From assembly GCA_031423355.1 (NCBI GenBank), contig JANPFJ010000012.1, positions 7,640 to 71,639 on the forward strand: a stretch of 64,000 nt of DNA, written 5' to 3'. Source of the stretch: Gemmatimonadaceae bacterium (GTDB lineage: Bacteria > Gemmatimonadota > Gemmatimonadetes > Gemmatimonadales > Gemmatimonadaceae). Positions 16,209 to 53,595 of the stretch are shown in pieces. Numbering within the stretch: the first letter of the stretch is position 1; every line of letters starts with the position of its first letter. The notes under the pieces are model-generated. The model saw only the letters and a list, made by a program, of their open reading frames with translations. It was not told where the DNA came from and ran no database searches. The translations under genes and the position numbers were made by a program.

Positions 16209-16852
16209 TTGGGGACGCGACTGATTGGGGACGGAGTCCGTGACGTGTTGGGGACGGACCCCGTGCCAAGTTCTCGAGCGCCACTGTCGCGTTTCGTCTG
16301 AGCCCCGCCAGCTTGGCCCGTTTCATCGGCGACTTCAGGAACGCGTCCTGCTTTACGCTCACGAACTCCGTCCCCAAGTACACAGGCATCGCGGCACGCC
16401 GATGCGCGTGAGCTGGGCGACCACGGCCTGTGCTCGACCCACCCCGGTAGAACGTCCTTCTCCGTGACCGATGGGGACGGAGTTCCTGACGTGATGGGGA
16501 CGGAGTTCCGGACCGCAGTGCGGTCGGCGGTACTGCCAGGGTTGGCGACGTGGCGCAGGGACGTGTGCGGCGCGAGAGCCAGCCGGTCACGAAACGCTGA
16601 GAAGTTGTTTGGTCAGGCTCTCTGGGTATGATCGGCGTGTCAGCTGAACGCAACCGTTCAAGAACGATTGCCCGATGAAGGCCCCCGTGCAGCATTCTCG
16701 AGCACGACCGCCGCGTTTCGCTGCAGCCCCCGGAGCTTCGCCCGCGTCATCGGCGACTTCCGGAACACCGCGCTGAACGCGTCCTGCGCCACGTTCACGA
16801 ACTCCGTCCCCATGAAATCACGAACTCCGTCCCCATGACCGGTCCCCATGAC
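16206..16852. repeat. BIME-like mosaic: four REP clusters in alternating orientation interleaved with two short QueG-like repeat copies
   Basis: GGGGACGGAGT-orientation REPs lie at 16206-16266 and 16470-16513. ACTCCGTCCCC-orientation REPs lie at 16358-16376 and 16795-16852. QueG-like pieces (SPMKRAKLAGLRRNATVALEN and SPMTRAKLRGLQRNAAVVLEN on the minus strand) lie at about 16267-16360 and 16690-16795. Confidence 0.85.
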
Positions 16853-16998
16853 CGGTGACACCGAATCCGCGAGCCCTGATACGGCAGACGCACCGCTCAG
16901 CCCTGCCAGTACGCCAGACACGACAAAGCGCCCGACGAGGCTCACGCTCGCCATTGTCGCTCGGATCGCCGCCGGCGTAGCCGTTGGCGAAGACCTCC

Positions 16999-18333
16999 CT
17001 ACTCCGGCCCCTCCCACTGCAACACCTTCATCAACGAGGCCTGCGGCGACGACCGGAGATCGTTCTCCGACCGCATGCGCTGCGTCGATCCCATGTACAG
17101 CGCCTTCCCGAAGCGCGGGGACATCTCCTCGTCGGCCCGGCGCAGCAACAGCACCAGTTCGGCGAGCAGCGGCTCGACACCCGGCAGGTCGCGCGCGTAG
17201 TGCTCCATCCACTTGAGTTCGCGCTTGAGATAGTGCTTGGCGCCGCGACGGTCGCCTTCGACGTTGAAGGTCACGGTGCGACGCATGGCATCAGCTTGCC
17301 AGGCGATGAAGGCCGCAACGCTGCGATCGACGTCGCGCCGCTGTGTCTTGTTCTCAGACGACTCGGCAAGGAGCAACTCCGCTTCGGCGGCGGCGGCGTT
17401 TACACTGCCGGTGCCATCGGGACGCATGCCGAACGCGGTGGCCGAGAGCGGGATCCGCATGCCGACAGCGCCCGCGGGGCAGTGCAGTCGCACCACCACC
17501 CGCTTGGGATTCGCCGTGAGCAATGTGCCGACCATCACGTCGATCGCGCCAGGCAGCACGGTGTGCGACCACGACCCCACGACCTCGGCGCGCACATTGG
17601 CGGGCACGACGACGCGGAGGGCGACGCGTTCGAGCAGCGCGCTGCGCCCCTCGATGAGTTCGCCGAGCACCACCTCGCTGATCTCCTCGGCGTGTTCGGC
17701 GTCGTGGAGGCGCCCACCGCCTGCTTCTGCGATGGCGCCGAGCACGGCTTCGTCGTAGTCGTTTCCGATGCCGACGGCGGAAGTGATGATCCCGCGCGCG
17801 AGTGCCTCGCCGGCGTGGTGCGCGAGGTCGCGTGGGGCAGTGGTGCCCTGGTTGGCCTGTCCGTCGGAGAGGATGAGCACGCGATGTGAGGCCTTGGCCG
17901 AGTCGCGCATGGCGGTGGCGACGCGCTCGCCGGCCAGGAGCCACCCCTCCCAGAGATTGGTGTTGCCCTCGGACTCCAGGCGCGCGATCGCCTGGAGCGC
18001 GTCACGCCGACCGGCGTCGTCCATGACGCGGGCGTCGAGGAGGAGCGTGGCCGCGTTGCTGAAGGCGACAGTGGTGAGGCGGTCACGTGCGGTGAGGGCG
18101 CGCGTCACCGCGCTCGCCGTATCGCGTGCCGCGACCAGCTTCTCGCCCGCCATGGAACCGGAGACATCGATCGCGAGTGCGAGGTTGATCGCGGGCGGCG
18201 TGACGTCGCTGGCCACCGTGCCGCTCGCGTCCAGGTCGGCGACGAGGTAGCGCACGGAGCCGCCGGCGTCCCACGCGAGGGCGCGGTCGAGGCCGATGCG
18301 GAGTGTGAGTGCGGTGCGTGTCGAGGTGGGCAT
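16999..18333 (-). CDS. von Willebrand factor A (VWA) domain protein with a ~200-aa C-terminal extension
   Basis: Starts at ATG 18331-18333 (TAATG overlap with the upstream MerR-like gene). The MIDAS motif is LAIDVSGSM, followed by TNLWEGW and ILSDGQAN. Confidence 0.8.
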   Translation of the reverse strand: MPTSTRTALTLRIGLDRALAWDAGGSVRYLVADLDASGTVASDVTPPAINLALAIDVSGSMAGEKLVAARDTASAVTRALTARDRLTTVAFSNAATLLLDARVMDDAGRRDALQAIARLESEGNTNLWEGWLLAGERVATAMRDSAKASHRVLILSDGQANQGTTAPRDLAHHAGEALARGIITSAVGIGNDYDEAVLGAIAEAGGGRLHDAEHAEEISEVVLGELIEGRSALLERVALRVVVPANVRAEVVGSWSHTVLPGAIDVMVGTLLTANPKRVVVRLHCPAGAVGMRIPLSATAFGMRPDGTGSVNAAAAEAELLLAESSENKTQRRDVDRSVAAFIAWQADAMRRTVTFNVEGDRRGAKHYLKRELKWMEHYARDLPGVEPLLAELVLLLRRADEEMSPRFGKALYMGSTQRMRSENDLRSSPQASLMKVLQWEGPE

Positions 18334-18980
18334 TAGTCTCTCCCTGTGAGGATGTCGCGCATGAGCTCTGCGCAGCGCTCGAGCCGAGCGCGTTGTTCCG
18401 GGTCGAGTTGTCCGCGGACGGAGAGTTCGACGTCGGGGGTGATACCGATGGTGATCCACTGTTCGCTCCGCGCCTTGCCGGTGGCGGGGGAGCGGGCGCC
18501 GGTCTCCATGAGTCGGCGTTCGAGGGCTTCGAAGCCGGAGGCGGGTCGCTTGTGCGGTGGATTGGTGACGTCGGACGACGTCAGCGCGTTGGCGGAGTGC
18601 GCGATGCCGAACATGGCCTGCGACGCCACGGACCGGAGTGAGTGGAAGTAGTCGAGGGCGGCGCCGGGGTCGGATGGGGCGTGCAGCGCCGAGGAGAGAG
18701 GCAGTTCGGGTGCGATGTCGACGGCTTTGTCGGCCCAGGCTTGGATCTGCTCCGCGGTCGCGACGAGGAGTTCGCGTCGAATGTCGGTGAGTGACATGCC
18801 GAGGAGGTCTTTCATTACACGGATGGCGCGAATGCGCTCGAGCTGGTCGGCGGGGTAGCGGGCGAGTGGGCCGCGGGTGAGGGGCCCTGGGAGGAGGCCC
18901 TGGGCGACCCAGGACCGGATGGTTCGGGACTGCAGGCCCGAGGCGTCGGCGAGATCGGCGAGGGTCAGCTCCTGTTGCAT
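18333..18980 (-). CDS. MerR-family HTH protein with an uncharacterised C-terminal domain
   Basis: LTLADLADASGLQSRTIRSWVAQGLLPGP...YPADQLERIRAIRVMKD is a MerR-type winged HTH. The gene is translationally coupled to the VWA gene. Confidence 0.75.
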   Translation of the reverse strand: MQQELTLADLADASGLQSRTIRSWVAQGLLPGPLTRGPLARYPADQLERIRAIRVMKDLLGMSLTDIRRELLVATAEQIQAWADKAVDIAPELPLSSALHAPSDPGAALDYFHSLRSVASQAMFGIAHSANALTSSDVTNPPHKRPASGFEALERRLMETGARSPATGKARSEQWITIGITPDVELSVRGQLDPEQRARLERCAELMRDILTGRD

Positions 18981-19076
18981 GCGCCGGAAGCTAGAGTCGA
19001 CATATCACCATGTCAAGATGTCGAGTAGGCGCGAGATCCCACTGACGGTCTGGGCAATGACCGTGCGACCCGCGTA

Positions 19077-19106
19077 CCTGTTGGTGCCTGTTGGTGCCTG
19101 TTGGTG
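19077..19106. repeat. 10-bp tandem repeat, cctgttggtg x3
   Basis: Read directly from the sequence; it lies just downstream (lower coordinates) of the IstB relic. Confidence 0.8.
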
Positions 19107-19148
19107 CCGGTGGTCCTCATTGTGCGCGTGGCGCGCCTCGCCGCGACC

Positions 19149-19331
19149 AGTGTCGATCAGCGCGCCGGCCATGACGTCATCACGTAAGATCTCGCCCCAC
19201 GCCTCGAAGCCCTTGTTGCTGGTGAGCACCGTGGAGGCGCGTTCGTAGCGCCGACTCATCAGCTGGTAAAACAATTGCGCGCCGGTCCGTGAGATGGGGA
19301 GATACCCGATCTCACCGATCACCATCAATTC
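19149..19331 (-). pseudogene. IS21-family IstB helper ATPase, ~60-aa internal relic
   Basis: LMVIGEIGYLPISRTGAQLFYQLMSRRYERASTVLTSNKGFEAWGEILRDDVMAGALID matches the Walker B/sensor region of IstB. No N- or C-terminal parts are present. Confidence 0.75.
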
Positions 19332-19540
19332 CCGACACCGTGACTGGTGTCGAGACTCGCAAGCGCGCCTGTCGTTTACACCGTGATTCCAGGCGATCCT
19401 TGCCAGCGTCGTCGTGCCGCTCGATCTTCGCTGCGTCGTGCTCGTAGCTGCCCGATCCGTTCGCCATGCGTGACACTCGATGAAATGAGGGAGGTGGCTA
19501 CCGTGAAACGCCGCATCATGCACTCGTTCCGCGGTACCGA

Positions 19541-20812
19541 ATGAGCGCCAGCTCCACGAAGTCGACCGCATCGATCCCGCCGAGCCAAACCGCATGGCCG
19601 GCGTGGTACACCGTCGTCCTGCTCTGCAGCGCGGCGGTCTTCATCGCCTATATCGACCGCACCAACATCTCGGTCGCGTCGATTGCGATGCAGGAGCAGT
19701 TCCACTGGACCGAGACGACGAAGGGTTACGTACTCTCGTCGTTCTTCATCGGGTACCTGATCCTGCAGGTCGCGAGTGGCACACTGGCCAACCGGTACGG
19801 TGGAAGAATCGTGCTGGGCGTGGCTGTGTTCTGGTGGTCGCTGTTCACGATCGTGACGCCCCCTGCCGCGCTGCTGTCGTTTTCGGCGCTGATCGCCGCG
19901 CGAATCGCGCTCGGCCTCGGTGAAGCCGCGGTCTTTCCCGCATCGATCAACATGATCGGCCGCTGGGTTCCGCCAGCCAAGCGGTCGCGCGCGGTGGCGA
20001 TCTGCATCAGCGGCCTCTCCCTCGGCACCGTGGTCTCGCTGCCGCTGACTGGTGCACTGGTGAAATCGCAGGGATGGCCAGCACCGTTTTACGTCTTCGG
20101 TGTGGTCGGGCTGGTGTGGACGGTGATCTGGTTCATGAGTGTGCGGTCCGGGCGGGCGAGCGTCGATGACGAAGCGGATGAGGCGCCGGTGGCGCGGGGC
20201 GGTATTCCGTATGCGCGCATCGTCCGCACGCCCGCGGTGTGGGCGATCATCGCCTGCCACTTCGCCAACAATTGGATTCTCTACCTGTTGCTGGCGTGGC
20301 TGCCAAGCTACTTCAAGTCGACGTTCGGCGTCTCATTGACCAACGCTGGGCTCCTCTCCGCCGCACCGTGGCTCTGCACCTTCGTGACGGCGAACATCTC
20401 CGGGGTTGCGGCGGATCGGATGATCGCCGCCGGCCGCAGCGCGGGATTCACGCGCAAGCTGCTGCAGACCCTTGGTACGGGCGGCTCCGCCTGCGTGCTA
20501 CTGCTGCTGCCGCACGTGACCACGGCCGGCGCGGGTGTCGCGGTGATGTGCTGCGCGTCGGGGCTGCTGGGACTCTGTCAGGCAGGGTTCGCCGCGAACG
20601 GCTTCGACATCGCGCCGCGGTATGCTGATGTCATCTGGGGGATCAGCAACACCTTCGGCACCATTCCGGGGATCGTGGGCGTGGCCATCACCGGGTGGCT
20701 GGTGGATCGTACCGGCAGCTACGACACGCCATTTCTGGTGAGTGCCGGTATCGGTTTCGCGGCGACGGCGATCTATCTCTGGCTCGGTTCGGGCGTGCGG
20801 CAGATCGACTGA
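19541..20812 (+). CDS. MFS transporter (anion:cation symporter / ACS-like)
   Basis: A 423-aa protein with about 12 hydrophobic spans. FIAYIDRTNISVA, LANRYGGR and RIALGLGEA are ACS-family motifs. Confidence 0.85.
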   Translation: MSASSTKSTASIPPSQTAWPAWYTVVLLCSAAVFIAYIDRTNISVASIAMQEQFHWTETTKGYVLSSFFIGYLILQVASGTLANRYGGRIVLGVAVFWWSLFTIVTPPAALLSFSALIAARIALGLGEAAVFPASINMIGRWVPPAKRSRAVAICISGLSLGTVVSLPLTGALVKSQGWPAPFYVFGVVGLVWTVIWFMSVRSGRASVDDEADEAPVARGGIPYARIVRTPAVWAIIACHFANNWILYLLLAWLPSYFKSTFGVSLTNAGLLSAAPWLCTFVTANISGVAADRMIAAGRSAGFTRKLLQTLGTGGSACVLLLLPHVTTAGAGVAVMCCASGLLGLCQAGFAANGFDIAPRYADVIWGISNTFGTIPGIVGVAITGWLVDRTGSYDTPFLVSAGIGFAATAIYLWLGSGVRQID

Positions 20813-20825
20813 GCCGCCGAGGCCC

Positions 20826-21167
20826 TCAGCGGACCTTGCCGAGGTGATACTGAATGCCGATGCTTTTCACGTTTGTCAGGTGAAGCACTCGACCGCACTG
20901 GACCGACTCGAAGTGCACCGCGAACGTGTCGCTCGCCCCCTGGTAACGGTTCGTCCGGGTCAGTTCCCACAGGCCGTTCATGCTCCAGCGCCCGCGATAC
21001 TCCGATTGGTAGACACGCATCGGTCCATTCACTCTGTCGATCACACCGGTGCTCTTGCTCGTGTAGGTCCCGTCGGCGTGGAACGTGAACTGGTCACTCG
21101 AGGCCGTCGAGTTTGTACCCGCACTATCCGCCGGTGGTGGTGTAGTACATGTCGACGCCGGTGGCAC
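20826..21167 (-). CDS. hypothetical protein, probably the 3' part of a frameshifted and 5'-truncated gene
   Basis: The 113-aa ORF has plausible composition (FTFHADGTYTSKSTGVIDRVNGPMRVYQSEYRGRWSMNGLWELT). A protein-like reading (VIDPRRRIAKVFRLDGTVDTLNEHDSLVVGAWSASGATGVDMYYTTT) continues upstream in another frame to about 21290, where it abuts the IS91 end motif. Confidence 0.4.
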   Translation of the reverse strand: MPPASTCTTPPPADSAGTNSTASSDQFTFHADGTYTSKSTGVIDRVNGPMRVYQSEYRGRWSMNGLWELTRTNRYQGASDTFAVHFESVQCGRVLHLTNVKSIGIQYHLGKVR

Positions 21168-21304
21168 CGCTCGCGCTCCATGCTCCCACCACGAGACTGT
21201 CGTGCTCGTTGAGTGTGTCGACCGTCCCGTCGAGGCGAAAGACTTTCGCGATGCGTCGTCGCGGGTCGATCACCCAAACGAGTTTTTTGTGCCCACGGCC
21301 AGCC

Positions 21305-21715
21305 AGTCAGCCACCTTCCCCTTCGGGATAGGAACTTCAATCATGGCGGGTTGACGATCCGTCGAGCATCCGGCGCGATCGCCGACCTCGCCAGCGCCGC
21401 GTGACGGGCGTCGGCGTGCGTGACGTGCCCCGGCTCGCGGGGGCCCGCGTCGATGGGGGGCTCCGCGCGCCGGCGTGAGTCGCGGCGCGGAGACTATCGC
21501 GGACGGCCCGTCGGCTGCCGTCGGCTGCGCTTTCCCCGTTTGCCGCGGGGGGCGGTTGCCATACCAGCCACAGTATCGCGTGATGACGTGGCCCATGTCG
21601 GGGATGTGCACCCGCACCCGGGCCAGGAACTCCAGCGGGTCCACGGTCTCCGTGCCCCCCGTCGGACCCTCCGACTTGTCGGAGCGATAGGTCACGCTGA
21701 AGCCGCTTTCGCAGC
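21305..21715 (-). mobile_element. IS91-family (Y2 rolling-circle) transposase relic: C-terminal part with an internal deletion, plus the end motif
   Basis: TYRSDKSEGPTGGTETVDPLEFLARVRVHIPDMGHVITRYCGWYGNRP...HAGARSPPSTRAP is parallel to the fuller copy at 37860-38300. The end motif gattgaagttcctatcccgaa (minus strand) lies at about 21310-21335. Confidence 0.75.
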
Positions 21716-21876
21716 CTGATGAACGCAGACATCGTTGGACAGTGCGTCGACATCCAACGGGTGTCGTGTCGGCACCGACCGCACGCGTTACACTTCGAGC
21801 GTGTGGACGCGTATGAGTCCGGGAGTACCTTTCGATTCGCCGTTATCCCCAACCGTGTGCCGAGGCTTCGCACGTC

Positions 21877-22251
21877 ATGCCGAAGATTCTGCTCATCGAA
21901 GACAACGAAATGAACCGCGACATGCTCTCGCGCCGACTGATCAAGCGCGGCTACGAGGTCGTGATTGCGGAAGATGGACAGGTCGGAGTCGATTTGGCGC
22001 GGCGTGAGATGCCGGCCGTGATCCTGATGGACATGAGCTTGCCGGTGATCGATGGATGGCAGGCGACGAGAATGCTCAAGGCGGACGAGACGATGCGGCA
22101 TATTCCGATCATCGCGCTTACCGCGCATGCCATGACGGGTGACGAGCAGAAGGCCCGTGAGGCCGGCTGCGACGACTTCGATACGAAGCCTGTCGATCTG
22201 GCCCGGTTGCTTGGCAAGATCGAGGCATTCCTCGGCCCCGCCGCCTCGTAA
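21877..22251 (+). CDS. single-domain response regulator (CheY-like receiver)
   Basis: KILLIEDNEMNRDML...VILMDMSLPVIDGW...IIALTAHAM...DFDTKP carries the D-D-K receiver residues. Confidence 0.9.
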   Translation: MPKILLIEDNEMNRDMLSRRLIKRGYEVVIAEDGQVGVDLARREMPAVILMDMSLPVIDGWQATRMLKADETMRHIPIIALTAHAMTGDEQKAREAGCDDFDTKPVDLARLLGKIEAFLGPAAS

Positions 22252-22269
22252 ACACCTGAGGGGGCACGC

Positions 22270-24210: not shown

Positions 24211-24239
24211 CCACGAGCGCCGGCCGGTTCATCCGGCCG

Positions 24240-26468: not shown

Positions 26469-26473
26469 CCGCG

Positions 26474-45691: not shown

Positions 45692-45700
45692 GCGGTGAGT

Positions 45701-46810
45701 ATGGAAATGAAGAAAACAACGGTCCTGAAAATCACGGGCGCCGGCGCTGCCCTGTTCCTGACCGCCGCGCTGCTGGTGACGCTGCATGTCCTGCCCTCGC
45801 CGATGGATCTGGCGAGGCACGGGTCACCGCAAAAAGACCTCGTCATCGACCATGCCATGCGCGACCAGGTGCTCGAGAGCCTGATCGCGAACCTCAATGC
45901 CACTTACGTCTTTCCCGACAAGGCCAAGGCGATGGAAACCGCGCTGCGCAGCAGGCAGCAGCGCGGCGAATACGAGAAAATCGCGAGTGCGGAGGAATTC
46001 GCGGCAACCTTGACCGACGATCTGCGCCGCGTCAGCGATGATCGCCATCTCGATGTCGGGTACAGCGAGAAACCGATCCCGATGCCGCAGGTCGGCGTAG
46101 ACCCTGATGCCATGTCCATCGAGCAAGTCGAGGAAATGATTCACCACAACTACGGCATCGAAGCCGTACAGCGCTTGCCGTTCAATATAGGCTATCTCGA
46201 CCTGCGCGAGTTCGCTCCCGCCGATCACGTCGCCGGCCGGCTTGGCGCCGCGATGACCCTGTTGTCGCAGACCGACGACCTGATCATCGATTTGCGTTCC
46301 AACAACGGCGGCGATCCGAAGACCGTGGAATTGCTCGCCAGCTATCTGTTCGACGCACGAACTCGTTTGAACGACATCTACCTGCGCCCGGACAACCGGA
46401 CGGAGCAGAGTTGGACACATGATCGGCTGTCAGGTCCAAGATACGGCGGCAAGCGGAAGATCTATCTGCTGACCAGCCGGGATACGTTTTCCGCGGGCGA
46501 GGATTTCGCGTACGCGCTGAAGAATCTCAAGCGCGCCACGCTGATCGGCGAGGGTACAGGCGGAGGTGCGCATCCCGGCTCGGCTGTCAGGTTGAACGAA
46601 CACTTCGGTGCCATCGTGCCCAGCGGCCGCTCGATCAGCCCGATCACGCACACCGACTGGGAAGGCGTCGGCGTCGTGCCCGATATCGCCATGGACGCCG
46701 ACGATGCGCTGGACCACGCCCAGGTGATGATCATCAAGGACCGCCTGCGTACCGAGAGGGATGCTTTCAAGCGCGATCGTCTGCTGGCTGGCCTCGCCAG
46801 GTTCGACTGA
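45701..46810 (+). CDS. S41-family peptidase (IRBP/tail-specific-protease-like), secreted
   Basis: N-terminal hydrophobic segment, then LIIDLRSNNGGDP and KIYLLTSRDTFSAGEDFAYALKNLKRATLIGEGTGGGAHPG. It is paralogous to the C-terminal half of 53636..56470. Confidence 0.85.
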   Translation: MEMKKTTVLKITGAGAALFLTAALLVTLHVLPSPMDLARHGSPQKDLVIDHAMRDQVLESLIANLNATYVFPDKAKAMETALRSRQQRGEYEKIASAEEFAATLTDDLRRVSDDRHLDVGYSEKPIPMPQVGVDPDAMSIEQVEEMIHHNYGIEAVQRLPFNIGYLDLREFAPADHVAGRLGAAMTLLSQTDDLIIDLRSNNGGDPKTVELLASYLFDARTRLNDIYLRPDNRTEQSWTHDRLSGPRYGGKRKIYLLTSRDTFSAGEDFAYALKNLKRATLIGEGTGGGAHPGSAVRLNEHFGAIVPSGRSISPITHTDWEGVGVVPDIAMDADDALDHAQVMIIKDRLRTERDAFKRDRLLAGLARFD

Positions 46811-47249
46811 GAAGACGCTGCGGCGGCGATATGCGCACCCCAGTATGTGGCGGTGGGGCGAGTTGCGCGGCGATCGCCTCATCACCATTCTGTCGTCGTG
46901 TGTCTCCGACGAGTATCTCACCACGCTTCGCGACACTGGTGTCTCGTACATCCTGGCCGCCACTGATGACGTCGATCTCGCCGCCGTCATGCAGCAACTT
47001 GACTCGCGCTTCGGTGTGCGGACGCTGATGCTCGAGGGTGGTGCCGGGCTCAATGGCGCTATGCTGCAGGCGGGGCTCGTGGATGAGATCAGCGTGTTGG
47101 TCGCGCCCGTCGTTGACGGACGGAGCGGCATCGCGACGCTCTTCGATCAGCCTCCACTTGTCGGCGCCGCGCACCGAGTGCGTTTGCAGCGCGTGGATCG
47201 TGTTACAGACGATGTGCTCCACCTGCGGGATGAGGTGCTGCGGGGCTGA
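46761..47249 (+). pseudogene. RibD_C / dihydrofolate-reductase-like family protein, N-terminally truncated
   Basis: Only the C-terminal ~130 aa are recognisable (YILAATDDVDLAAVMQQLDSRFGVRTLMLEGGAGLNGAMLQAGLVDEISVLVAPVVDG). The region before about 46830 overlaps the peptidase gene. Confidence 0.55.
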
Positions 47250-47446
47250 GTTCGCCGCATTCGTAACCTTTGCAGCAGGCATGGCCGCCGCGGTGTGGCA
47301 GACCACGCGGTCGGATGTGGCCGAAGAAATCGCGCTCGCGAACGCACTGCGCACGCCACAGCGGCGCTTGAGTCGATCCGGCTAAGCCAGGTGTTTCGGC
47401 AAGCCGGTACGGCACGGTCATGGCGCGTCGTGACGTTCAAGGTCGC

Positions 47447-47712
47447 TCAGCACCAACGCGGCATTGCGCTTGAGCCCCGCCAGCTTCGCCCGCTTCATCG
47501 GTGACGTCCGGAACGCCGTGCTGAACGCCCCCTGATCGAGCGCCAGAATGTCCGTCGCCAGCGTCACCGCATCCTTCCCCGCAATGAACTCCCGCGCCCG
47601 GAACGGCGAGTCCTCCGCCAGTTCCTGCGAAAACTTCACGTTCCACGGACAGCAGGTCTGGGAGATGTCTCGGTATAACCGCTTTGCGATCCCGCTCACG
47701 ACGGGGCGGGGC
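47447..47712 (-). repeat. QueG-like dispersed repeat, long copy 6 (uninterrupted reading frame, ORF 47418..47741)
   Basis: RPVVSGIAKRLYRDISQTCCPWNVKFSQELAEDSPFRAREFIAGKDAVTLATDILALDQGAFSTAFRTSPMKRAKLAGLKRNAALVLSD. It lacks the N-terminal two thirds of a real QueG. Confidence 0.85.
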
Positions 47713-47820
47713 ACCCTCAGCGCAGGAGGGCGTCCCGGCACTCGTCGCGACGCCCTGACGGTGTGACCTTAGTCACAGATACTGAATGGTCGGCTGCGTG
47801 TCTCCATCTCCGGGATCCCG

Positions 47821-48053
47821 ATGGCGATTCTCGTCAGCAAGACCCGAGCACAGGGCGCCTCAGTCGTCAGAACGCTCCCCGCCGAGGTCGCGCGCCGCCT
47901 GTCGGTGACGCCTGGGCAGGAACTCGAGTGGATCGAGGACGGCATGGGCGGCTTCCGTGTGGTGCCCCCCCCCCCGAGACCGCCGAGGCGCTGGTCGTGC
48001 ACGAGAAGATCATGACCGAATACGACGCGGTGTTTCGCGCGCTCACTCGGTAG
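47821..48053 (+). pseudogene. AbrB/SpoVT-type antitoxin of a Doc module, frameshifted at an 11-C homopolymer
   Basis: MAILVSKTRAQGASVVRTLPAEVARRLSVTPGQELEWIEDGMGGFRVVP, then C x11 at 47965-47975. The expected tail ETAEALVVHEKIMTEYDAVFRALTR is in the neighbouring frame and ends at TAG 48051-48053. Confidence 0.65.
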
Positions 48054-48062
48054 GCACGATCA

Positions 48063-48335
48063 GTGAAACCGGAGCCGCGCTGGCAAACGGACACCACGCT
48101 GCTCGCAATCCATGCGCAGCAGATCGAACGGCGTGGCGGTGAGCACGGTGTTCGCGATCAGCACATGGTGCTGTCAGCGCTGGCGCGACCTAAGCAGCGC
48201 TGGCACTACGATGCGTCGGCCGATCTCGCCGACGTGGCAGCGTTGTATCTGGTTGGCCTGCCGCAGGCGCAGGGGTTCGTCGACGGGAACAAGCGCACGG
48301 GGCTGGCCCGGGCGTTGGTGTTCCTTGCGCTCTCG
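48063..48335 (+). pseudogene. doc: Doc/Fic-family death-on-curing toxin, truncated and with the catalytic His replaced
   Basis: LLAIHAQQIERRGGEHGVRDQHMVLSALARP...AALYLVGLPQAQGFVDGNKRTG. The Fic motif reads QGFVDGNKR instead of H-x-F-x-D-G-N-K-R. Homology ends at about 48335, where an opposite-strand RHH gene begins to overlap. Confidence 0.65.
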
Positions 48336-48474
48336 CCGCCGCGTCCTGCCGAATCGCCTCGGCCACGATCCCGCTGCGCGAGCGACCATGCTGCGCCGCG
48401 CGTTCGTCGGCGGCGCGCAGTGTTCCGGGCGGCAGCGGAATGCCGATGCGGGCGATGGGGGGCTTGCGGTCCAT
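48190..48474 (-). CDS. ribbon-helix-helix (CopG/Arc-like) protein; the tail beyond ~50 aa is probably non-native
   Basis: MDRKPPIARIGIPLPPGTLRAADERAAQHGRSRSGIVAEAIRQDAAARA has the RHH pattern. The rest of the ORF runs antisense through the Doc relic. Confidence 0.45.
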   Translation of the reverse strand: MDRKPPIARIGIPLPPGTLRAADERAAQHGRSRSGIVAEAIRQDAAARAQGTPTPGPAPCACSRRRTPAPAAGQPDTTLPRRRDRPTHRSASAA

Positions 48475-48517
48475 GGAGAATCACACTCGGTGACACTGAA
48501 TGTGACACCCTCCTCTC

Positions 48518-51172
48518 TCACGTCCGGCCCCTCAACCCCACGAGTCCCCCCATCTCCACCCCCACCCGCCCCGCGAGCTCGAGAATTTCCACCACCTGCC
48601 CCTTCTTCAGCGCTCCCCGGCTGTAGTGTCCCTCGCGCCCCGACAGCCCCAACGTGATCGTCTCCGCGAGGCACGCATAGATCTGTCCCGTGGGCAGCGG
48701 CATCCACCCCGTCGCCAGCGCCTGTCTCTCGGGAAGTTGCGCCAGCGAGCCGTGATACGCCGCCACATCGGGGCGCTCCGTGAATACCGCGGGGGCGATG
48801 TTGGAAGGCACCGAAATGTCGAGAATCACGGCTCCCCACTTCAGGATGTCCGAGGTGATGAGAACGTCGGTCGTGCTGGTGCCAAGCACGATCGCATCGC
48901 AATCGATCAACGCGCCCACGTCGTCGCTCACCCGCACTGCCGCCGCGTCGATCGCCGAGCCCTGGAGGATGCGCGTGCGCGCCAGCTCCATGCGCCGAGC
49001 CGCATCATCCCCCCGCCGGTGGATCAACGTCATCGCCGCGGCATGGTCGCCGATGAGCTGCGCCAGGACGTTGCAGATGTTGCCGGCTGCCCCTACCACT
49101 CCCACTCGGCACTCCTTCAACGCGCGACCGCGCTCGCGAAGCGCACGACGCAGCGTCTCGAAGGCGAAGCCGGCGGTGAGGCTGTTGCCTGTCGTGATCG
49201 ATGGCCCGTATTCGCTGACGAGCAGTCCGTTGCTGGAGACGATGCTCGTGTACTGCCCAAGCCCTGCCAAGGCGCACCCACGGCGCCCGGCGAGCGTGAC
49301 GGCGCGTCGCACTTCCTCCAGCGCGGCAAAATCGCGGCGCTTGAGCGACTGCTCGAAGAACTCCGTCGTCCGCATGATGCCGTACACCTCGAGTTGGATG
49401 CGCTCGCCCGTCGCCGATTCGATCTCCTGCTCCAGGTAGACCACCGGATCGGCGACATCGCCAAAGGTGTCCATGAAGCGGCGACGCTCGCCCGCGCTCA
49501 GCGCGGCCAGTGCGGCGTCCATGTTGCCGGCGTTGGCCTGGTCGATGACATGCGTGACGAAGGCCACTCGGCGCGCCCCGTGACGCCCGTTCGAACGCGC
49601 CCGCACGAGCGGGGCCGAGCGTACCTCGAGCGCATCGGGTGGGAGGTTGTCGTGCCAAAGGTCGCGCGTCAGCTGCAACAGCTGGCGGTTGCGGATCAGT
49701 ACGCAGAGTTCGCGCAGCGCCGCCAGCGTGCGATCGACCTCCACATCGCTCACGTATACACTTGGCTCGATGCGCAGTACCGTCGTGCGGCTCAGCGTCA
49801 CCCCCACACGAATGCCATGGCGCGTCAGCAGGTAGCTCATGAAGAGGTACGAGCCAAGCCCTGCGTCGGTCGCCGTCTTGAGAAAGAGCGGGATCTCGAC
49901 GGCGTCACCCGCGAGGTCGAAGTCGAGACCCAGGAGAAAGCCGCGTCCGCGTACGTCCGCGATGTACCGTCCCACCTCTTGCTGGATCGCCGCGATCCCC
50001 TCGCGCATGCGCGCCTCGAAGCGCCGCGCGCGCTCACTCACGGATGGCGTGAGCGACTCCACCTCATCGATCGCCGCCAGCGCCACCAGGCACGACGGCT
50101 CGTCCTCGGCGAAGGTCGAGCTGTGCATCCACCCGAACTCCGCGACGTACCGGTCAGCTGCAATGCATGTCGCCGAGAGCTTTGACAGGCCGCCACCCAG
50201 GCTCTTGCCGAGCAGGATGTAGTCCGGCTGGAGTGCGAGGTGCTCGCAGCAGAGGAAGCGGCCCGTCCGGAAGAAGCCGGACTGGATCTCGTCGGCGATG
50301 AGCGGCACGCCGAGCGCGCCACGCACGCCTTCCATCCAGCGGGCGAAGGGCTCAGGGAGCGGGAACATCCCCCCCTCGCACTGGAGCGGTTCGAAGATGA
50401 TCCCGACGATCGGCGAGATCTTCCCCAGGCCGACAGCGCCCGCATCGATCGTGAGCGACCGAACCACCTCGTCGCAGCCAGCGGTGTCGGACGCGTCAAG
50501 GAAGAGCGTGTCGACCGGGGCGCGGTCGAACATCGACCGGAAGGCGGGGTTCGAGGTCGCCGACAGGGCGCCCGCCGTCTTGCCGTGGTAGCTCCCCTGC
50601 ACCGCGAGGAGGATCGGCGCCTGGCGCTCGACCGCTTCCTTGAGCGCGCGAAGCGGTGCGACTGACGGATCCTCCGGACGCTGGTCCAGGCACTCCAGGA
50701 GCATTTTGTCGATGGTCGTGGTCCAGTGCCGTCGACGCGCGCCGTGCTCCATGAGCGCATGCTTGATCGCCGCCTCGACTGCCTCGGTCCCCGTGCTGGA
50801 GAAGTGGACGAGGTGTCCGTCGCTCGAGGGGAGCGCGCTCCGCAGAAGTCCACCCAACCGTTCAGCGAGTGTCGCGGCCGGCTCGCGCACCGACCCCTGC
50901 ACATTGGTCGGGACGCCGGCCGCGTACGCGTCGCACAGCGTCTTCACGAGGCGCGGATGGTTGTGACCGAGCAAGGTCGAGCCGTAGCCGCCGAGTAAGT
51001 CGAGCACCTCGCGGCCGTCAGCGTCGGTGAGGAGGTCACCCTCTGCCCGCGTGTAGACGCGGTCGATCGCCAGCAGTCGCAGGAGCCTGGCGATGTAGGG
51101 CTTGACGTGCCGTTCGTACCGCGCGGTCGCGTCGGCGGTCTCTGCGGCGAGGGTGGTGTCGGAGTGTGCCAT
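48518..51172 (-). CDS. fusion protein: class-III PLP aminotransferase (N-terminal ~540 aa) plus acyl-ACP reductase (AAR)-like NAD(P)H domain (C-terminal ~340 aa)
   Basis: Starts at ATG 51170-51172. Aminotransferase motifs are LLGGYGSTLLGHNHP, VQGSYHGKTAGALS, IADEIQSGFFRTGRF and the PLP-Lys context ILLGKSLGGG. The reductase-like part has VAFVTHVID, LAGLGQYTSIV, ITTGNSLTA, VGVVGAAGNICN, VILDISVP and YACLAETITL, parallel to cyanobacterial AAR (GLIGHLTS, ALGGFTSII, FTTGNTHTA, VAVVGATGDIGS, VLIDGGYP, FACFAEAMLL). Confidence 0.8.
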   Translation of the reverse strand: MAHSDTTLAAETADATARYERHVKPYIARLLRLLAIDRVYTRAEGDLLTDADGREVLDLLGGYGSTLLGHNHPRLVKTLCDAYAAGVPTNVQGSVREPAATLAERLGGLLRSALPSSDGHLVHFSSTGTEAVEAAIKHALMEHGARRRHWTTTIDKMLLECLDQRPEDPSVAPLRALKEAVERQAPILLAVQGSYHGKTAGALSATSNPAFRSMFDRAPVDTLFLDASDTAGCDEVVRSLTIDAGAVGLGKISPIVGIIFEPLQCEGGMFPLPEPFARWMEGVRGALGVPLIADEIQSGFFRTGRFLCCEHLALQPDYILLGKSLGGGLSKLSATCIAADRYVAEFGWMHSSTFAEDEPSCLVALAAIDEVESLTPSVSERARRFEARMREGIAAIQQEVGRYIADVRGRGFLLGLDFDLAGDAVEIPLFLKTATDAGLGSYLFMSYLLTRHGIRVGVTLSRTTVLRIEPSVYVSDVEVDRTLAALRELCVLIRNRQLLQLTRDLWHDNLPPDALEVRSAPLVRARSNGRHGARRVAFVTHVIDQANAGNMDAALAALSAGERRRFMDTFGDVADPVVYLEQEIESATGERIQLEVYGIMRTTEFFEQSLKRRDFAALEEVRRAVTLAGRRGCALAGLGQYTSIVSSNGLLVSEYGPSITTGNSLTAGFAFETLRRALRERGRALKECRVGVVGAAGNICNVLAQLIGDHAAAMTLIHRRGDDAARRMELARTRILQGSAIDAAAVRVSDDVGALIDCDAIVLGTSTTDVLITSDILKWGAVILDISVPSNIAPAVFTERPDVAAYHGSLAQLPERQALATGWMPLPTGQIYACLAETITLGLSGREGHYSRGALKKGQVVEILELAGRVGVEMGGLVGLRGRT

Positions 51173-51716
51173 TGGGCGCCGTAACCTTGAGAGGGGAGTC
51201 TCGCGCTCCGAACGGAGCGCGAGGACAACCTCGGCGTTCCGGCACCGGCGCCCCATCCGTCAAGTGACGTAGATGGCTGGGGTTGATGACGTATGCATGG
51301 CACGGTGTGGAAATCGCGTGCATCGCCGTCGCCTGGCGCCGACACGGGGGTCAGTGGCCAGCGCGGCCCCGCGGTGGGGCAGCCGCAACGGTACGGTACC
51401 CCCCCGCCACCGCGCGAACGCACACACTGGAGCGATCCCTACTCCCGTGAGAGAGTCAGGCGCGTGGGATTTGACCCTCGGAGCAGGGGAGTGCAGCGCC
51501 ACAAATGCGGCGGGCAAGCGATGACTGCAGGCCTCATCGCACTCATCACGGACGCACTGGCCGCGGCCACGTCGACCTGCACCGCGACCACCCAGCCGCC
51601 GCGCGTCTTTGCGGAGCGGACCTGTCAGACGCTCGACAGCTGGACGTGCGTACGCCGCGTGGTCGCCAGCACACCACTCCGGCGGCCACAACTTCACCCG
51701 TGGTGAATACTCCAGG

Positions 51717-51845
51717 CTAGCGGAACATGTCCATGTTACCCAGCAACCACCACAACACCAGAAAGATCAGCACGGTGCTGAAGCAGCCGCCTCCCAGCTT
51801 CTTGGCACCATATCCGGCGGCCAGCCCACGCAGCAGCTTGCTCAT
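51717..51845 (-). CDS. 42-aa small membrane protein (below the ORF-track cutoff)
   Basis: MSKLLRGLAAGYGAKKLGGGCFSTVLIFLVLWWLLGNMDMFR, from ATG 51843-51845 to TAG 51717-51719, with one clear TM helix. Its coding status is unverified. Confidence 0.35.
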   Translation of the reverse strand: MSKLLRGLAAGYGAKKLGGGCFSTVLIFLVLWWLLGNMDMFR

Positions 51846-51988
51846 TGCGTCACTCCTTCACACAGGTAAGGCTCGCGCGATGCGAGCTGAACGCTGGAAT
51901 GCCGCCAATCGCACCGACGGCCCGCACGTTGCATGTAATGAACGGTGTTCGCTCACGGCAGTCATCGCGTCCAGCACGGAGTCGTCCC

Positions 51989-52741
51989 ATGTCGTACGGC
52001 ATTCGCCACAGGCAGGATTCGATTCCTGTCGTGTTTCCTCTTCTGCTCGCCACCGGAGCGCTGAGCCTGCTCGCGATCGTGTGGCGGCAGCGCAGTGCAC
52101 CCCGGCACGAACGCAATCTGCTGCCGAACGCCGCCTCACGCCGACTTCGTCGTGCCAGCGAACGTCTCGACACCGGTGACGGTACGCAGCTGGCGAGCGG
52201 TGGCAGCGGCGCACTGATTCATCGCCGGTACGAGATTGCACTCCCCAATAGCGCCGTCAGCCACGACATCGTCCTGCGGTTGATGCAGCTGCATCTCACC
52301 GAGTTCGCACCCGCCACGCTCGCACGATTCGAGAAGCGCGTGGGCAGTGATCAGCTATTCCGCGTCGGGGACGAGTACGAAATCACGATGCTCGGACCTT
52401 GGAACGGTCGCGTTCGCGTCGCCGAGATGACGCAAGACAGCTTCACGCTCGTGACGCTCGAGGGACATCCGGAAGCCGGTCACATCACGTTCTCCGTGCA
52501 GGATGACACCAACTCGGCGGGACAGCTGCTGGTGCGCATCGAGTCACTGGCCCGGTCACGTCATGCGATCGTGGCGGCGGCCGACGGAGCGCTGCGCGTC
52601 GGCAAACGGGTGCAGACCGAGGTGTGGATCACGTTCCTTCAGCGGTTTGCCCTGCTCGCCGGCGTCAGCACACGCCCGGAAGTCGGCATCACAACCGAAT
52701 CACTGCCCGACGCGACCACCGTTCCGCCGCGTGACGCCTGA
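51989..52741 (+). CDS. DUF1990-domain protein with an N-terminal TM segment
   Basis: Starts at ATG 51989. IHRRYEIALP...FRVGDEYEITMLGPWNGRVRVAEMTQDSFTLVTLEGHPEAGHITFSV has the DUF1990 pattern. Confidence 0.65.
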   Translation: MSYGIRHRQDSIPVVFPLLLATGALSLLAIVWRQRSAPRHERNLLPNAASRRLRRASERLDTGDGTQLASGGSGALIHRRYEIALPNSAVSHDIVLRLMQLHLTEFAPATLARFEKRVGSDQLFRVGDEYEITMLGPWNGRVRVAEMTQDSFTLVTLEGHPEAGHITFSVQDDTNSAGQLLVRIESLARSRHAIVAAADGALRVGKRVQTEVWITFLQRFALLAGVSTRPEVGITTESLPDATTVPPRDA

Positions 52742-53122
52742 TTCTGCCGCGCTCGACGCGGCGCTGGTGAAGCGACTGGCCGAGATCGGGCTGATGGAAC
52801 CAACGATCGATCTCGCGCAGCGCGACAGCTACGTCGCTGCCGCCGGATGGCACGTGGACTCGCGAGAGGCACCCTCGCCGGCCACCCCGAGCGCGGCGAG
52901 ATCACGTTCGAGCTCGTGAAGCAGCAGGCCACCGGTGCGGTGGCGTTCCGCATCCATTCGTTCTCGCAGACGGGCCACATCGCCAACCTGCTGCATCGCA
53001 TCGGCTTCCGGCTCGTCGGACGTCGGCTGCAACGACGTTTTGCGGAAGAATCATTGGCCAACATGCAACGGGTGGTGGGCGCCGAGGTCGCCGCTCGCGG
53101 CCACGTTGCCGAGCGCGAATGA
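52731..53122 (+). pseudogene. second, short DUF1990-like gene with a frameshift near 52860
   Basis: A GTG at 52731 overlaps the upstream stop. VTPDSAALDAALVKRL...AAAGWHVDSRE then continues in another frame as LAGHPERGEITFELVKQQATGAVAFRIHSFSQ (ORF 52847..53122). Confidence 0.4.
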
Positions 53123-53344
53123 GCGAGACCCGTGGTGGGACGACCGCGCGCCACGCTCATCACCCGTGCGTCATGGGACGACGTTACGTCCGGTCACGAG
53201 ACCGACGATCATCGCAATGTCGGCGACGACGACGAAGACCACGAACAACGTCTTCGCGATAGCCCACGACGCGGTGGCGATGCCGCCGAAGCCGGTCGAT
53301 GCGTGGCGTGCTTCGTACTCGTTCACCTCGCGCTCCACCTCGTC

Positions 53345-53595
53345 GCAACCGTCGCATTCCGCTGTAACCCGCGCCGCTTCGCGCGTTTCATCGGCGAGTT
53401 CTCGAACGCCACGCTGAACGCCACCTGATCCAACGCCAGAATGTCTCGCGCCAGCGTCACTGCGTCCTTCGCCGTGATGAACTTACGGGTTGCGAATGGT
53501 GAGTCTTCACCAGCGCGTAGAAGCACTGCACAGTTCACGGACACACGCTCTGGGAGACGTGTTGGTATGACCGTACCGAGATTCCGCTGAGCACT
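53345..53595 (-). repeat. QueG-like dispersed repeat, long copy 7 (frameshifted)
   Basis: ..SQSVCP(frameshift)..GEDSPFATRKFITAKDAVTLARDILALDQVAFSVAFENSPMKRAKRRGLQRNATVA. Confidence 0.85.

Follow-up and report, generated by a model that had tools for sequence, protein, structure and literature searches.

A one-directional cassette array marked by queG-derived repeats in Gemmatimonadaceae

Why do copies of one piece of queG, which encodes a tRNA-modification enzyme, recur, all facing the same way, between unrelated genes in a Gemmatimonadaceae contig? Repeat finding, MAFFT alignment and nhmmer searches with profiles of the copies recovered seven of them in the 64,000-nucleotide stretch analyzed here (the window), all on the minus strand, with E values from 1e-17 to 1e-86. 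They are alike at the DNA level, not in protein alone, and lie where a preliminary description had placed seven co-oriented copies; an eighth, 48-nt relic had been missed in that description, as had the part of the repeat that does not come from queG. The repeat is bipartite. Part Q corresponds to queG over about 215 nt, starting at the C-P-W-N codons and ending with R-N-A-A-V-V-L-x-N; behind it come a short private tail and a stop codon. Part E comprises about 55 nt that are absent from queG and terminates in a near-invariant block, GATCTCAAAACGGTTATACCGACACATCTCCCAG. The copies are as follows:

16268–16350 (−), copy 1: 3′ part of Q only, last ~85 nt; nhmmer E value 3e-17
16692–16809 (−), copy 2: 3′ part of Q only, last ~120 nt; profile positions 168–285, nhmmer E value 2e-26
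33221–33268 (−), relic of part E: 48 nt, upstream part of the repeat only; profile positions 12–59, nhmmer E value 5e-4
36714–36994 (−), copy 3: full E and Q, two in-frame stops; E/Q junction ~36929; nhmmer E value 7e-81
42096–42327 (−), copy 4: E and Q with a ~55-bp internal deletion; E/Q junction ~42264; nhmmer E values of the halves 8e-35 and 1e-23
44531–44806 (−), copy 5: full E and Q, 1-nt deletion causing a frameshift; E/Q junction ~44746; nhmmer E value 1e-80
47442–47720 (−), copy 6: full E and Q, open reading frame; E/Q junction ~47657; nhmmer E value 5e-86
53344–53613 (−), copy 7: full E and Q, strongly decayed with several stops; E/Q junction ~53549; nhmmer E value 1e-63

The proposed QueG origin holds: copy 6, whose reading frame (47418–47741, 107 aa) is identical to database protein P0001, matches positions 227–307 of the 337 in NCBIfam TIGR00276 with an E value of 2.4e-6. 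Translation shows stops or frameshifts in copies 3, 5 and 7. Pairwise identity among the intact long copies 3, 5, 6 and 7 is 71–84%, so that an earlier estimate of roughly 80% was slightly generous; pairs with copy 4 fall to 65–67% over the full length because of its deletion. In all copies, the low-coordinate boundary is sharp, directly after the VVLxN codons, as had been described. Copy 1 is flanked on both sides by an inverted pair of the motif GGGGACGGAGTTCGT, and clusters of the same motif replace the remainder of the repeat in copy 2. The relic at 33221–33268 has the orientation of the seven copies and adjoins a small ORF at 33243–33476 (+), relatives of which overlap E by 26 nt in seven other loci, as found by ORF clustering. 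A stem-loop reported for four long copies is significantly stable only in copy 4 (z = −3.76; −0.2 to −1.0 in the other four), and its arms display no co-variation across 98 copies. The hairpin is not a conserved structure, which the preliminary description had overlooked.

No intact queG was found inside the window by tblastn. Copy 7 is the most upstream copy, no queG 5′ part lies beyond it, and the next gene upstream is an MFS–S41 fusion (53639–56599, minus strand; Pfam). We surveyed 152 related loci, nearly all of which were assigned by binning to Gemmatimonadaceae or Gemmatimonadales; together they hold 299 copies. None of these copies is inverted, the 147 additional copies all being co-oriented. 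In each of the 38 loci with a queG 5′ part, the most upstream copy is an intact queG, so that the head of the array is a live gene, a feature missed earlier. The match to the repeat profile begins only at about position 55 in these head genes, but at about position 3 in downstream copies. Most head genes stop a few codons past VVLxN, and a native-type queG tail follows 16 copies, spread over 14 loci. The genes preceding the head queG are housekeeping genes. Downstream, the arrays reach at least 45–51 kb in units of 0.6–10 kb, with a median cargo of 2.7 kb that is often multi-gene, has genes in both orientations, includes toxin–antitoxin pairs, kinases and regulators, and is shuffled between genomes. 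Viral contigs yielded no copy of the repeat. This type of array is integron-like, widespread in Gemmatimonadaceae and, in the ~1.2 Mb of arrays and flanks searched, has no recombinase gene of its own.

The reading that we favor, and consider fairly probable, is that the window is an inner stretch of a large one-directional cassette array, and that the arrays of its relatives start inside the chromosomal queG. The seven copies would then be former queG 3′ ends that have been displaced, most of them already decaying. For the genome of the window, which holds no head gene, anchoring in queG is suggested by the sequences of these relatives.

Comparison of loci shows that the unit exchanged is Q, short tail, cargo and E, with the crossover at the E/Q junction. 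Loci L034 and L003 are collinear, with 81% identity over 2.2 kb downstream of queG, and L034 contains an extra unit of ~790 bp (Q, tail, DUF4160, DUF2442 and E) placed exactly at the C-P-W-N core, its native Q and native HEAT-repeat tail having moved behind E. After this one-unit insertion, the live queG joins the native 5′ part to the Q that has arrived, and the former Q lies downstream, behind E, as a pseudogene-like copy. The crossover lies within ~33 nt around the C-P-W-N-V-K codons. Linkage agrees with these borders: cassettes alike at the cargo 5′ end are also alike in the upstream Q (identity 0.875; background, 0.738) but not in the E that precedes this Q, and cassettes alike at the cargo 3′ end are also alike in the variable portion of the downstream E (+0.10 to +0.23) but not in the Q that follows this E. 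Loci L013 and L015 are ~96% identical through the cargo end and variable E and agree at 31 of 34 positions of the E block up to CCCAG, past which identity is ~88% in Q and absent beyond Q. For L035 and L055, the break falls at profile position 92. Units recur across genomes in differing orders.

Of the two origins suggested in the preliminary description, the first, in which a single recurrent sequence serves for serial insertion or recombination, is supported by the unidirectional arrays, the queG heads and the exchange at the C-P-W-N codons in L034. We propose that small gene cassettes would be inserted serially at one spot inside queG, each giving the gene a new 3′ end and shifting the old one downstream. 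The cassettes would move as circles in which E joined to Q forms an attP-like site, and a site-specific recombinase recognizing the E block and the queG core would catalyze insertion and excision, the array growing as further units enter at its head or at any E/Q junction inside it. Q would stay translatable in cassette lineages, since a cassette arriving with a broken Q would inactivate queG. Such an enzyme would have to be encoded outside the array and act in trans, since ~1.2 Mb of arrays and flanks contain only one tyrosine-recombinase fragment (L071, 2325–2717), not adjoining a repeat, in a search with seven seeds, a small HMM and two regular expressions that could miss divergent enzymes, XerD failing to detect IntE. 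No circular or empty-site molecule was observed.

The same anatomy could also arise with no dedicated recombinase, a possible but rather unlikely alternative in which the 275-bp repeats would act as portable homology for RecA-dependent recombination or gene conversion. E would have been born once, in a single founder event; exchange between repeats would lead to gain, loss and shuffling of cassettes, for instance when foreign array DNA has been taken up; and crossovers would cluster in the longest nearly identical tract, the E block plus core. The lack of a recombinase gene in or beside the ~1.2 Mb of arrays fits this account, as does the linkage between Q and downstream cargo, which climbs gradually and without a step over the first ~70 nt, or first third, of Q. 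Direct repeats alone account for co-orientation, and concerted evolution would likewise make the E block and core the most conserved stretch. Homologous recombination indeed contributes, or could even be the main process, because in the high-identity pair L004/L042 the break lies just before E and not at the core. However, outside the ~30-nt core, the incoming and resident Q of L034 are by eye only ~55–60% alike, a poor substrate for RecA, yet the exchange took place exactly at the core, and the repeats are only 65–84% identical overall. Moreover, a single junction was used in 38 head genes of diverse species, and E is nearly invariant over more than 150 copy clusters (50% protein identity), which would be unexpected for neutral homology arms.

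The E block has no codon periodicity, as expected for a DNA-level site, while Q displays third-position relaxation (1.44/1.50/1.09 bits). The variable part of E shows codon-like conservation, with Pro (CCN) in 95 of 98 copies and Val (GTN) in 85–87 of 98, every synonymous codon being in use at these positions. A pure DNA site would not predict this codon-like conservation.

Could E and Q together then be chiefly a gene? It would encode a ~95-aa protein made of the QueG C-terminal domain with a new N-terminus, V-R-x-P-V-x-S-x-I-S-K-R-L-Y-R-H-I-S-Q, kept in many copies for some role in the array or its cargo, and the array structure would be a by-product of recombination between paralogs and queG. 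We consider this quite improbable. In its favor, the Pro and Val codons of E, in frame with Q, show variation of a synonymous type, and 55 of 98 distinct copies are open through both parts; between displaced orthologous copies, most differences fall on third positions (8/3/13 and 5/2/13 for codon positions 1/2/3), and gene callers predict hundreds of such short proteins. These proteins, however, have no conserved start codon or ribosome-binding site, their predicted starts falling at four different codons, and only one of the window's five long copies is unbroken. The context of the single remaining Cys is unable to bind an Fe-S cluster, and the AlphaFold model is poor (pLDDT 60). Conservation of the E block at all three codon positions points to a DNA-level constraint, a wobble-matched antisense frame fits the periodicity equally well, and the periods that Q spends as the live 3′ end of queG already account for the selection on it.

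The cargo between the copies, much of which had been named from the sequence, was recovered with Pfam and NCBIfam:

47721–53343, between copies 7 and 6: DUF1990, 51782–52738 (+); aminotransferase–dehydrogenase fusion, 48521–51259 (−); Fic/Doc, 48054–48623 (+); small partner ORF, 47772–48059 (−) (Pfam)
44807–47441, between copies 6 and 5: tRNA 3′ stub, ~44811–44860 (+); MarR, 44888–45688 (+); S41 peptidase, 45692–46807 (+); truncated RibD_C, 46731–47246 (+) (the last three by Pfam)
42328–44530, between copies 5 and 4: 5′-truncated DUF4256, 44193–44435 (−); TfoX_N, 43587–44120 (−); MazE/toxin pair, 42383–43266 (−) (Pfam)
36995–42095, between copies 4 and 3: nucleoside hydrolase, 40225–41454 (−); low-GC acyltransferase, 38938–40038 (+); IS91 transposase (Y2_Tnp) relic, 36960–37898 (+) and beyond; second IS91 fragment, 41418–41669 (+) (Pfam, NCBIfam)
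16810–36713, between copies 3 and 2, 20 kb, composite: VWA, MFS, response regulator, kinase, histidine kinase, BLUF and BTAD-TPR genes (Pfam); AAA_14/DUF4143 ATPase relic, ~28950–29326; E relic at 33221

Related genomes differ in the order and presence of such blocks. Those of the window with Fic/Doc, truncated DUF4256, MazEF, nucleoside hydrolase and M19 peptidase occur elsewhere at 81–93% identity with other neighbors and in other order. The Fic/Doc end with its E recurs in L022, L019, L006, L009 and L002; the block 47721–53343 would move together with Q from copy 7 and E from copy 6. Identity is 93% between the MazEF block and L004, L025 and L020, and likewise 93% between the nucleoside hydrolase and L038 and L074. 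The Q of copy 5, its tail and the truncated DUF4256 form one recurring unit, 85% identical over 577 nt to L074–L077, L043 and L027 from the E boundary. The junction of the copy 1 Q end with an M19 peptidase recurs in L016 behind a full repeat (86% over 1364 nt). The 20-kb block also has homology to L052 and to ATPase genes in L007, L011 and L026; it probably represents several fused cassettes with decayed repeats. The tRNA stub was read from the sequence, and ARAGORN finds no whole tRNA there.

The IS91 relic is directed away from copy 3 and begins ~100 nt from the E boundary of that copy, and the preliminary description had offered one-ended IS91/ISCR transposition as its second origin, the repeat being the terminal part of a rolling-circle transposon with a captured piece of queG. 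This origin is extremely improbable and is contradicted by several observations: the relic is unique to the window, with no homolog in the 77 other array loci then compared; every array head is an intact queG having only the Q part in common with the repeat; and the one-cassette insertion in L034 contains no transposase. The gene that does recur beside the repeat, in seven other loci, is ~410 aa long; the Pfam table of one member (L078) assigns its cluster to the AAA_14/DUF4143 ATPases. Most simply, the IS91 material is secondary cargo, because the acyltransferase (GC is 0.52 at 39–40 kb), together with the hydrolase, sits between the long relic and the second, short fragment.

In the literature searched, we found no description of queG-anchored cassette arrays, but several known systems resemble them in part. 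Like the queG cassettes, e14 and phage 21 integrate inside a protein-coding gene, icd of E. coli, and bring their own in-frame gene end. In K-12, e14 replaces the last 165 bp of icd, compared with ~215 bp of queG here, and the old end stays at the far junction as the icdC pseudogene, just as displaced queG ends do. In contrast to this single 15-kb element with integrase and excisionase, dozens of 0.6–10 kb units are stacked here without an integrase, the replacement end is truncated and lacks the last HEAT repeat, and every unit is marked by a conserved 55-nt non-gene arm.

In staphylococci, the RNA-modification gene rlmH (orfX) has SCC elements at its 3′ end that form composite islands of several like-oriented cassettes. 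The islands contain Ccr serine recombinases, and pseudo-SCC units without recombinase genes rely on enzymes in trans. The queG arrays are alike in their composite, same-orientation islands at such a gene end and in having recombinase-less units; however, SCC direct repeats are shorter than 20 bp and no large coding segment is replaced, whereas the queG arrays replace one, and no resolvase-type protein was found in the arrays sampled.

Build-up of the queG arrays also resembles the tandem accretion of integrative elements, tycheposons among them, at tRNA genes, where new arrivals at one site displace older ones into the island, leaving partial target copies and degraded remnants (preprint 10.1101/2020.12.28.424599). 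That study identified tycheposons as integrase-carrying elements; in the queG arrays, by comparison, the piece duplicated is 5–10 times longer and comes from a protein-coding target gene, and the sampled arrays lack integrases.

Chromosomal integrons differ from the queG arrays in having IntI, which is not found beside the queG array head, and attC-type folded hairpins, which the queG-array repeats are not. The entry site here lies within a housekeeping gene that is repaired by each cassette, and the cassettes are larger, often multi-gene and carry genes in both orientations. Both nevertheless have long one-directional arrays of small, diverse, shuffled cassettes, a single family of recombination-site repeats, a fixed entry point at the head, frequent toxin–antitoxin cassettes, and internal sites that are hybrids of two adjacent cassettes. 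We judge the queG array to be a new form of integration at a gene 3′ end combined with tandem accretion.

All seven queG-derived repeats that the preliminary description had reported in a single orientation were recovered on the minus strand of the window by repeat finding, alignment and nhmmer searches with profiles built from the copies (E-values 3e-17 to 5e-86). An eighth relic, in the same orientation as the others, was located by nhmmer and retains the upstream 48 nt only.

Repeat copies in the window, with coordinates from nhmmer
16268-16350, minus strand: copy 1, truncated
16692-16809, minus strand: copy 2, truncated
33221-33268, minus strand: relic of the upstream part (E, see below)
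36714-36994, minus strand: copy 3, with stops or frameshifts
42096-42327, minus strand: copy 4, with a deletion of ~55 bp
44531-44806, minus strand: copy 5, with stops or frameshifts
47442-47720, minus strand: copy 6, reading frame open
53344-53613, minus strand: copy 7, with stops or frameshifts

Identity among the intact long copies is 71-84%, and the deletion in copy 4 lowers it to 65-67% for pairs that include this copy. The minus-strand translation matches the QueG family TIGR00276 at model positions 227-307 of 337 (E 2.4e-6), in agreement with the proposed QueG origin, and with 20-27 bits the window copies stay far short of the curated cut-off of 200 for full-length QueG: they are QueG fragments. 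The domains QueG_DUF1730 and Fer4_16 are present in the intact genes at the start of the array (head queG) of L002 and L076, two of the related loci from other genomes or metagenomes that we number from L001. No head queG was found within the 64-kb window; it may lie beyond either end or have been lost. All seven copies are onetime queG ends that now lie inside an array, and most of them are decaying.

The family extends well beyond this contig. For the open copy 6, the protein collection contains at least 552 relatives, and the best 120 of these are all 87-164 aa long. A profile search of a 50%-identity library gave 1109 matches, of which the best 150 are nearly all 70-270 aa; among these 150, no full-length "source" gene containing the upstream part of the repeat was found in this representative library. 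Most of the short "epoxyqueuosine reductase" proteins, which number in the hundreds in metagenome catalogues, are array repeats rather than enzymes. For comparison of the DNA, 71 loci were taken from genomes, almost all of them Gemmatimonadaceae or Gemmatimonadales MAGs, 80 from metagenomes and several more through exact-protein look-ups; removal of duplicate stretches left 152 loci with 299 copies. None of the 299 is inverted within its own locus, the 147 additional copies all matching the first of their locus in orientation, which excludes scatter of a MITE or REP family in both orientations. An intact queG 5' part is present in 38 loci. No other copy lies upstream of that gene in any of the 38, and 19 of these loci have further copies downstream. 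On two long contigs the arrays span at least 45 kb and at least 51 kb.

Head genes match the repeat profile from about position 55 onward, whereas downstream copies match it from about position 3. The repeat therefore consists of two parts: E, some 55 nt that are absent from queG, and Q, about 215 nt of queG from the C-P-W-N to the R-N-A-A-V-V-L-x-N codons. Conservation over 98 distinct copies peaks in the final 34 nt of E, GATCTCAAAACGGTTATACCGACACATCTCCCAG, referred to here as the E block. It lacks codon periodicity (1.43/1.35/1.41 bits in the 98 copies), in contrast to Q, in which third codon positions are relaxed (1.44/1.50/1.09 bits). Conservation ends sharply right after the Asn codon of VVLxN. 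Most head QueG proteins, 311-324 aa long, stop a few codons past VVLxN with unrelated tails; the canonical HEAT-repeat end is kept by L059, L003 and L063. Inspection of the consensus revealed no evident similarity between the two ends of the repeat, and no Rfam family matches it at E-values up to 1.

Because this boundary is so sharp, the 3' end of Q was considered first as the insertion point. The alignment of L003 and L034, together with linkage tests, rules this out. From the C-P-W-N codons onward the two loci are collinear at 81% identity over 2.2 kb, and the queG segment before the L034 insertion (5' part plus Q) is 75.5% identical. L034 carries one extra unit of ~790 bp. Its head gene is native up to the region of the C-P-W-N codons at the junction of E and Q (the core) and then continues with a cassette-type Q and a short tail; there follow a DUF4160/DUF2442 pair and E, after which the locus returns to native sequence (Q, tail and downstream DNA). 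The switch from native to cassette sequence falls within ~33 nt spanning the C-Q-x-C-C-P-W-N-V-K codons. Native-type tails stand behind 16 copies in 14 loci, and no conserved synteny was found downstream of them.

Linkage between repeats and the genes they enclose (the cargo) leads to the same place. Cassettes that share a cargo 5' end also share the upstream Q (identity 0.875 versus a background of 0.738), and where the cargo 3' end is common to two cassettes, the downstream E is more alike in its variable part (+0.10 to +0.23); neither linkage passes across the junction. Pairs at 93-98% identity provided three informative breakpoints. L013 and L015 are ~96% alike through the cargo end and variable E, match at 31 of 34 positions of the E block up to CCCAG, and drop to ~88% in Q. 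The L035/L055 breakpoint lies at profile position 92, and that of L004/L042, just ahead of E, is an exception. Taken together, the L034 insertion, the linkage and these breakpoints show that the exchanged or mobile unit has the form Q - tail - cargo - E, and each repeat within an array is a hybrid of two neighbouring cassettes. Of the mechanisms raised in the preliminary description, recombination or serial insertion at one recurrent sequence is the one that agrees with these data, and the insertion and the linkage place the exchange at the core. The main rival to a dedicated recombinase is RecA-dependent exchange between the repeats. It is favoured by the L004/L042 exception and by linkage that is graded over the first third of Q, and on these grounds homologous recombination contributes at least in part.

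Read in frame with Q, the variable part of E displays a codon-like signal, for example at window 47658-47720 on the minus strand. Pro (CCN) is found in 95 of the 98 copies and Val (GTN) in 85-87, in each case with all four synonymous codons in use. Both E and Q are open throughout in 55 of the 98 copies, and in two pairs of displaced copies tied to shared cargo the differences fall mainly at third positions. There is, however, no conserved start codon for E+Q, and the AlphaFold model of its product is poor (pLDDT 60), both of which count against translation. The periodicity is equally compatible with a wobble-matched antisense frame.

Cargo is 0.35-9.4 kb long (median 2.7 kb), with 109 ORFs directed with queG and 181 against it. 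Recurrent pairs resembling toxin-antitoxin (TA) systems are DUF4160/DUF2442, HTH_31/DUF6036, MazE/PemK and Fic/Doc; Ser/Thr kinases, BTAD regulators and an AAA_14/DUF4143 ATPase also recur. Pfam agrees with the cargo listed earlier for the window. The window blocks with Fic/Doc, DUF4256', MazEF, the nucleoside hydrolase and the M19 peptidase (at copy 1) have counterparts of 81-93% identity in other MAGs, where their neighbours differ; the hydrolase, for instance, lies upstream of DUF4256' in L074 and downstream of it in the window. The AAA_14/DUF4143 gene was found in seven loci (L004 14982-16319, L007 2717-3940, L011, L026, L031, L047 and L058) and as a relic at window 28950-29326. In five of the seven, 22-140 nt separate it from the E boundary, and it points away from that boundary. 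The gene does not belong to the known recombinases, but its fixed placement is striking.

Several further features of the window were observed. Four Ser/Thr kinase genes at 3225-13704 are paralogues with a common N-terminal segment (84-89% identity; LADRYRIERELGAGGMA...), and array cargo of other genomes often includes members of this family too. The MazEF/TfoX cassette contains two short tandem arrays, one at 42624-42740 with six copies of a 15-nt unit (CGGCCCGCCTGCTCC) and one at 43616-43735 with ~7-9 repeats of a 12-nt unit. The E-only relic at 33221-33268 sits in a 20-kb block, which probably represents several fused cassettes, and adjoins a small ORF; in seven other loci, relatives of this ORF have a 26-nt overlap with E. 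The same block holds a 67-nt direct repeat (21416-21482 and 28736-28802, 96% identical, 7.3 kb apart). ARAGORN's call of a 95-nt tRNA-Arg at 22698-22792, inside a kinase gene, is probably spurious.

A second repeat, GGGGACGGAGTTCGT, occurs nine times in the window within one mismatch, versus 0 expected.

Sites of GGGGACGGAGTTCGT in the window, in short tandem clusters
368-405: GGGGACGGAGTTCGT
2386-2423: GGGGACGGAGTTCGT
16227-16241: GGGGACGGAGTTCGT
16361-16375: GGGGACGGAGTTCGT
16473-16487: GGGGACGGAGTTCGT
16797-16834: GGGGACGGAGTTCGT

Inverted pairs of it bracket the truncated copies 1 and 2, in place of E and the front of Q. Among 163 fetched loci, exact copies were found elsewhere only in L058, a contig of MAG VAR_34_metabat_498 whose positions 1-3789 match window 11465-15253 at 99.3% identity. 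Toward lower window coordinates the two diverge completely, and L058 carries other kinases and a repeat copy without E. L058 comes from a very close relative in which the arrangement beside the array differs.

The alternative mechanism in the preliminary description, one-ended IS91/ISCR transposition with capture of a queG piece, does not hold: the transposase is not regularly linked to the repeat, and the relic is present in the window only, with no homolog in any of 77 related loci. The relic itself occupies 36960-38695, and a second fragment of 184 nt (41418-41669), 87% identical and in direct orientation, lies beyond it; between them are a low-GC (0.52) acyltransferase gene (38938-40038) and the nucleoside hydrolase. 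This stretch looks like a secondary arrival within one cassette.

For the stem-loop described for four long copies, folding is significant in copy 4, but not in the other window copies among the five tested. RNAalifold on the 98 copies gave no consensus structure on either strand, and the arms of the sole candidate hairpin do not co-vary (C-G in 44 copies versus C-C in 44). Conservation in the repeat is that of sequence, not structure. The absent co-variation and the folding controls rule out a conserved attC-like or HUH-type hairpin.

We searched for a tyrosine or serine recombinase, as had been proposed, in 8731 six-frame ORFs from ~1.2 Mb, using seven seeds (IntE, lambda Int, XerD, FimB, FimE, PinE and phiC31 Int), a small tyrosine-recombinase HMM and two motif patterns. 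Within the limited reach of these probes, a single tyrosine-recombinase fragment was obtained (L071 2325-2717, 131 aa, FimE jackhmmer E 4e-23); it lies 3.8 kb upstream of a repeat copy, neither beside the repeat nor at a head gene. No integrase was detectable in 76 distinct cassettes or any flank, and none is listed in the Pfam tables of seven loci, some overlapping (L001, L002 and L074-L078). Within 10 kb upstream of head queG, the conserved neighbours are housekeeping genes (phosphodiesterase, LOG-like, DAO, SIMPL and a small conserved ORF), with no recombinase gene found. Neither the repeat protein nor the E-block DNA pattern is present in IMG/VR viral contigs, which rules out a phage-borne attP. 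Since no IS91 link, recombinase gene, viral site, Rfam match or conserved hairpin emerged, we infer that a recombinase supplied in trans works on the E block together with the queG core. A bolder reading is conceivable, though we consider it improbable: the arrays could form a cassette-capture platform distinct from integrons, with one entry site in queG and 275-bp composite sites through which each insertion restores the gene. Its recombinase would then belong to an unrecognised family or be a host enzyme drawn in by the invariant E block, and the in-frame E+Q product might itself act, e.g., as a site-binding or directionality factor.

By the defining features tested, the arrays are not integrons, IS91 elements, MITEs or self-encoded integrative elements. 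MITE and REP copies are scattered in both orientations and have terminal inverted repeats or a palindromic core, whereas the array copies all lie downstream of queG where a head gene is in view; IS91/ISCR elements have an HUH Y2 transposase regularly linked to a conserved end, which the arrays lack. Integrons are the textbook system for the storage and reshuffling of small gene cassettes at a single chromosomal site in bacteria, and the queG arrays resemble them in scale and cassette turnover. However, an integron has an IntI-type tyrosine recombinase adjoining the entry site, and none was found beside head queG; its attC sites are imperfect palindromes that fold as single-stranded hairpins of conserved structure, whereas in the array repeats it is the sequence that is conserved; and its cassettes are short, mostly single-gene, promoterless and oriented with the array, whereas those of queG span 0.35-9.4 kb and carry genes in both orientations. 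Tycheposons accrete in tandem at tRNA genes (10.1101/2020.12.28.424599), and the queG arrays share this tandem accretion. Such elements have a tRNA target and tyrosine recombinases; here the target is queG, integrases were not found, and the one tRNA-like piece in the window, a stub, sits within a cassette.

Among known systems, the nearest in logic are e14 and phage 21 in icd, where an in-frame substitute end is supplied to the gene and the old end is kept at the distal junction. We verified the e14 replacement end and the old end surviving as a pseudogene in E. coli K-12 icd. The queG arrays follow this pattern, as seen in a three-way alignment of L003 with both L034 copies (head and distal), in the downstream collinearity and in the 16 native-tail copies. 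The difference is that e14 and phage 21 have their own integrase beside the attachment site, whereas none is detectable in the arrays. We found no description of queG-anchored cassette arrays in open-access literature on queG/epoxyqueuosine reductase, integrative elements or Gemmatimonadota integrons. Gemmatimonadota are common in soils, and the arrays, which reach at least 45-51 kb and are filled with TA pairs, kinases, regulators and small enzymes, seem to make up a large part of the flexible genome of Gemmatimonadaceae. They do a job comparable to that of integrons in a different phylum, at a site that differs in kind, composed of a 55-nt arm of its own and a substitute end for a housekeeping gene. 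The enzyme, if found, would define a new site-specific system with a long att site already mapped to ~33 nt, and would show whether cassette platforms evolved more than once.
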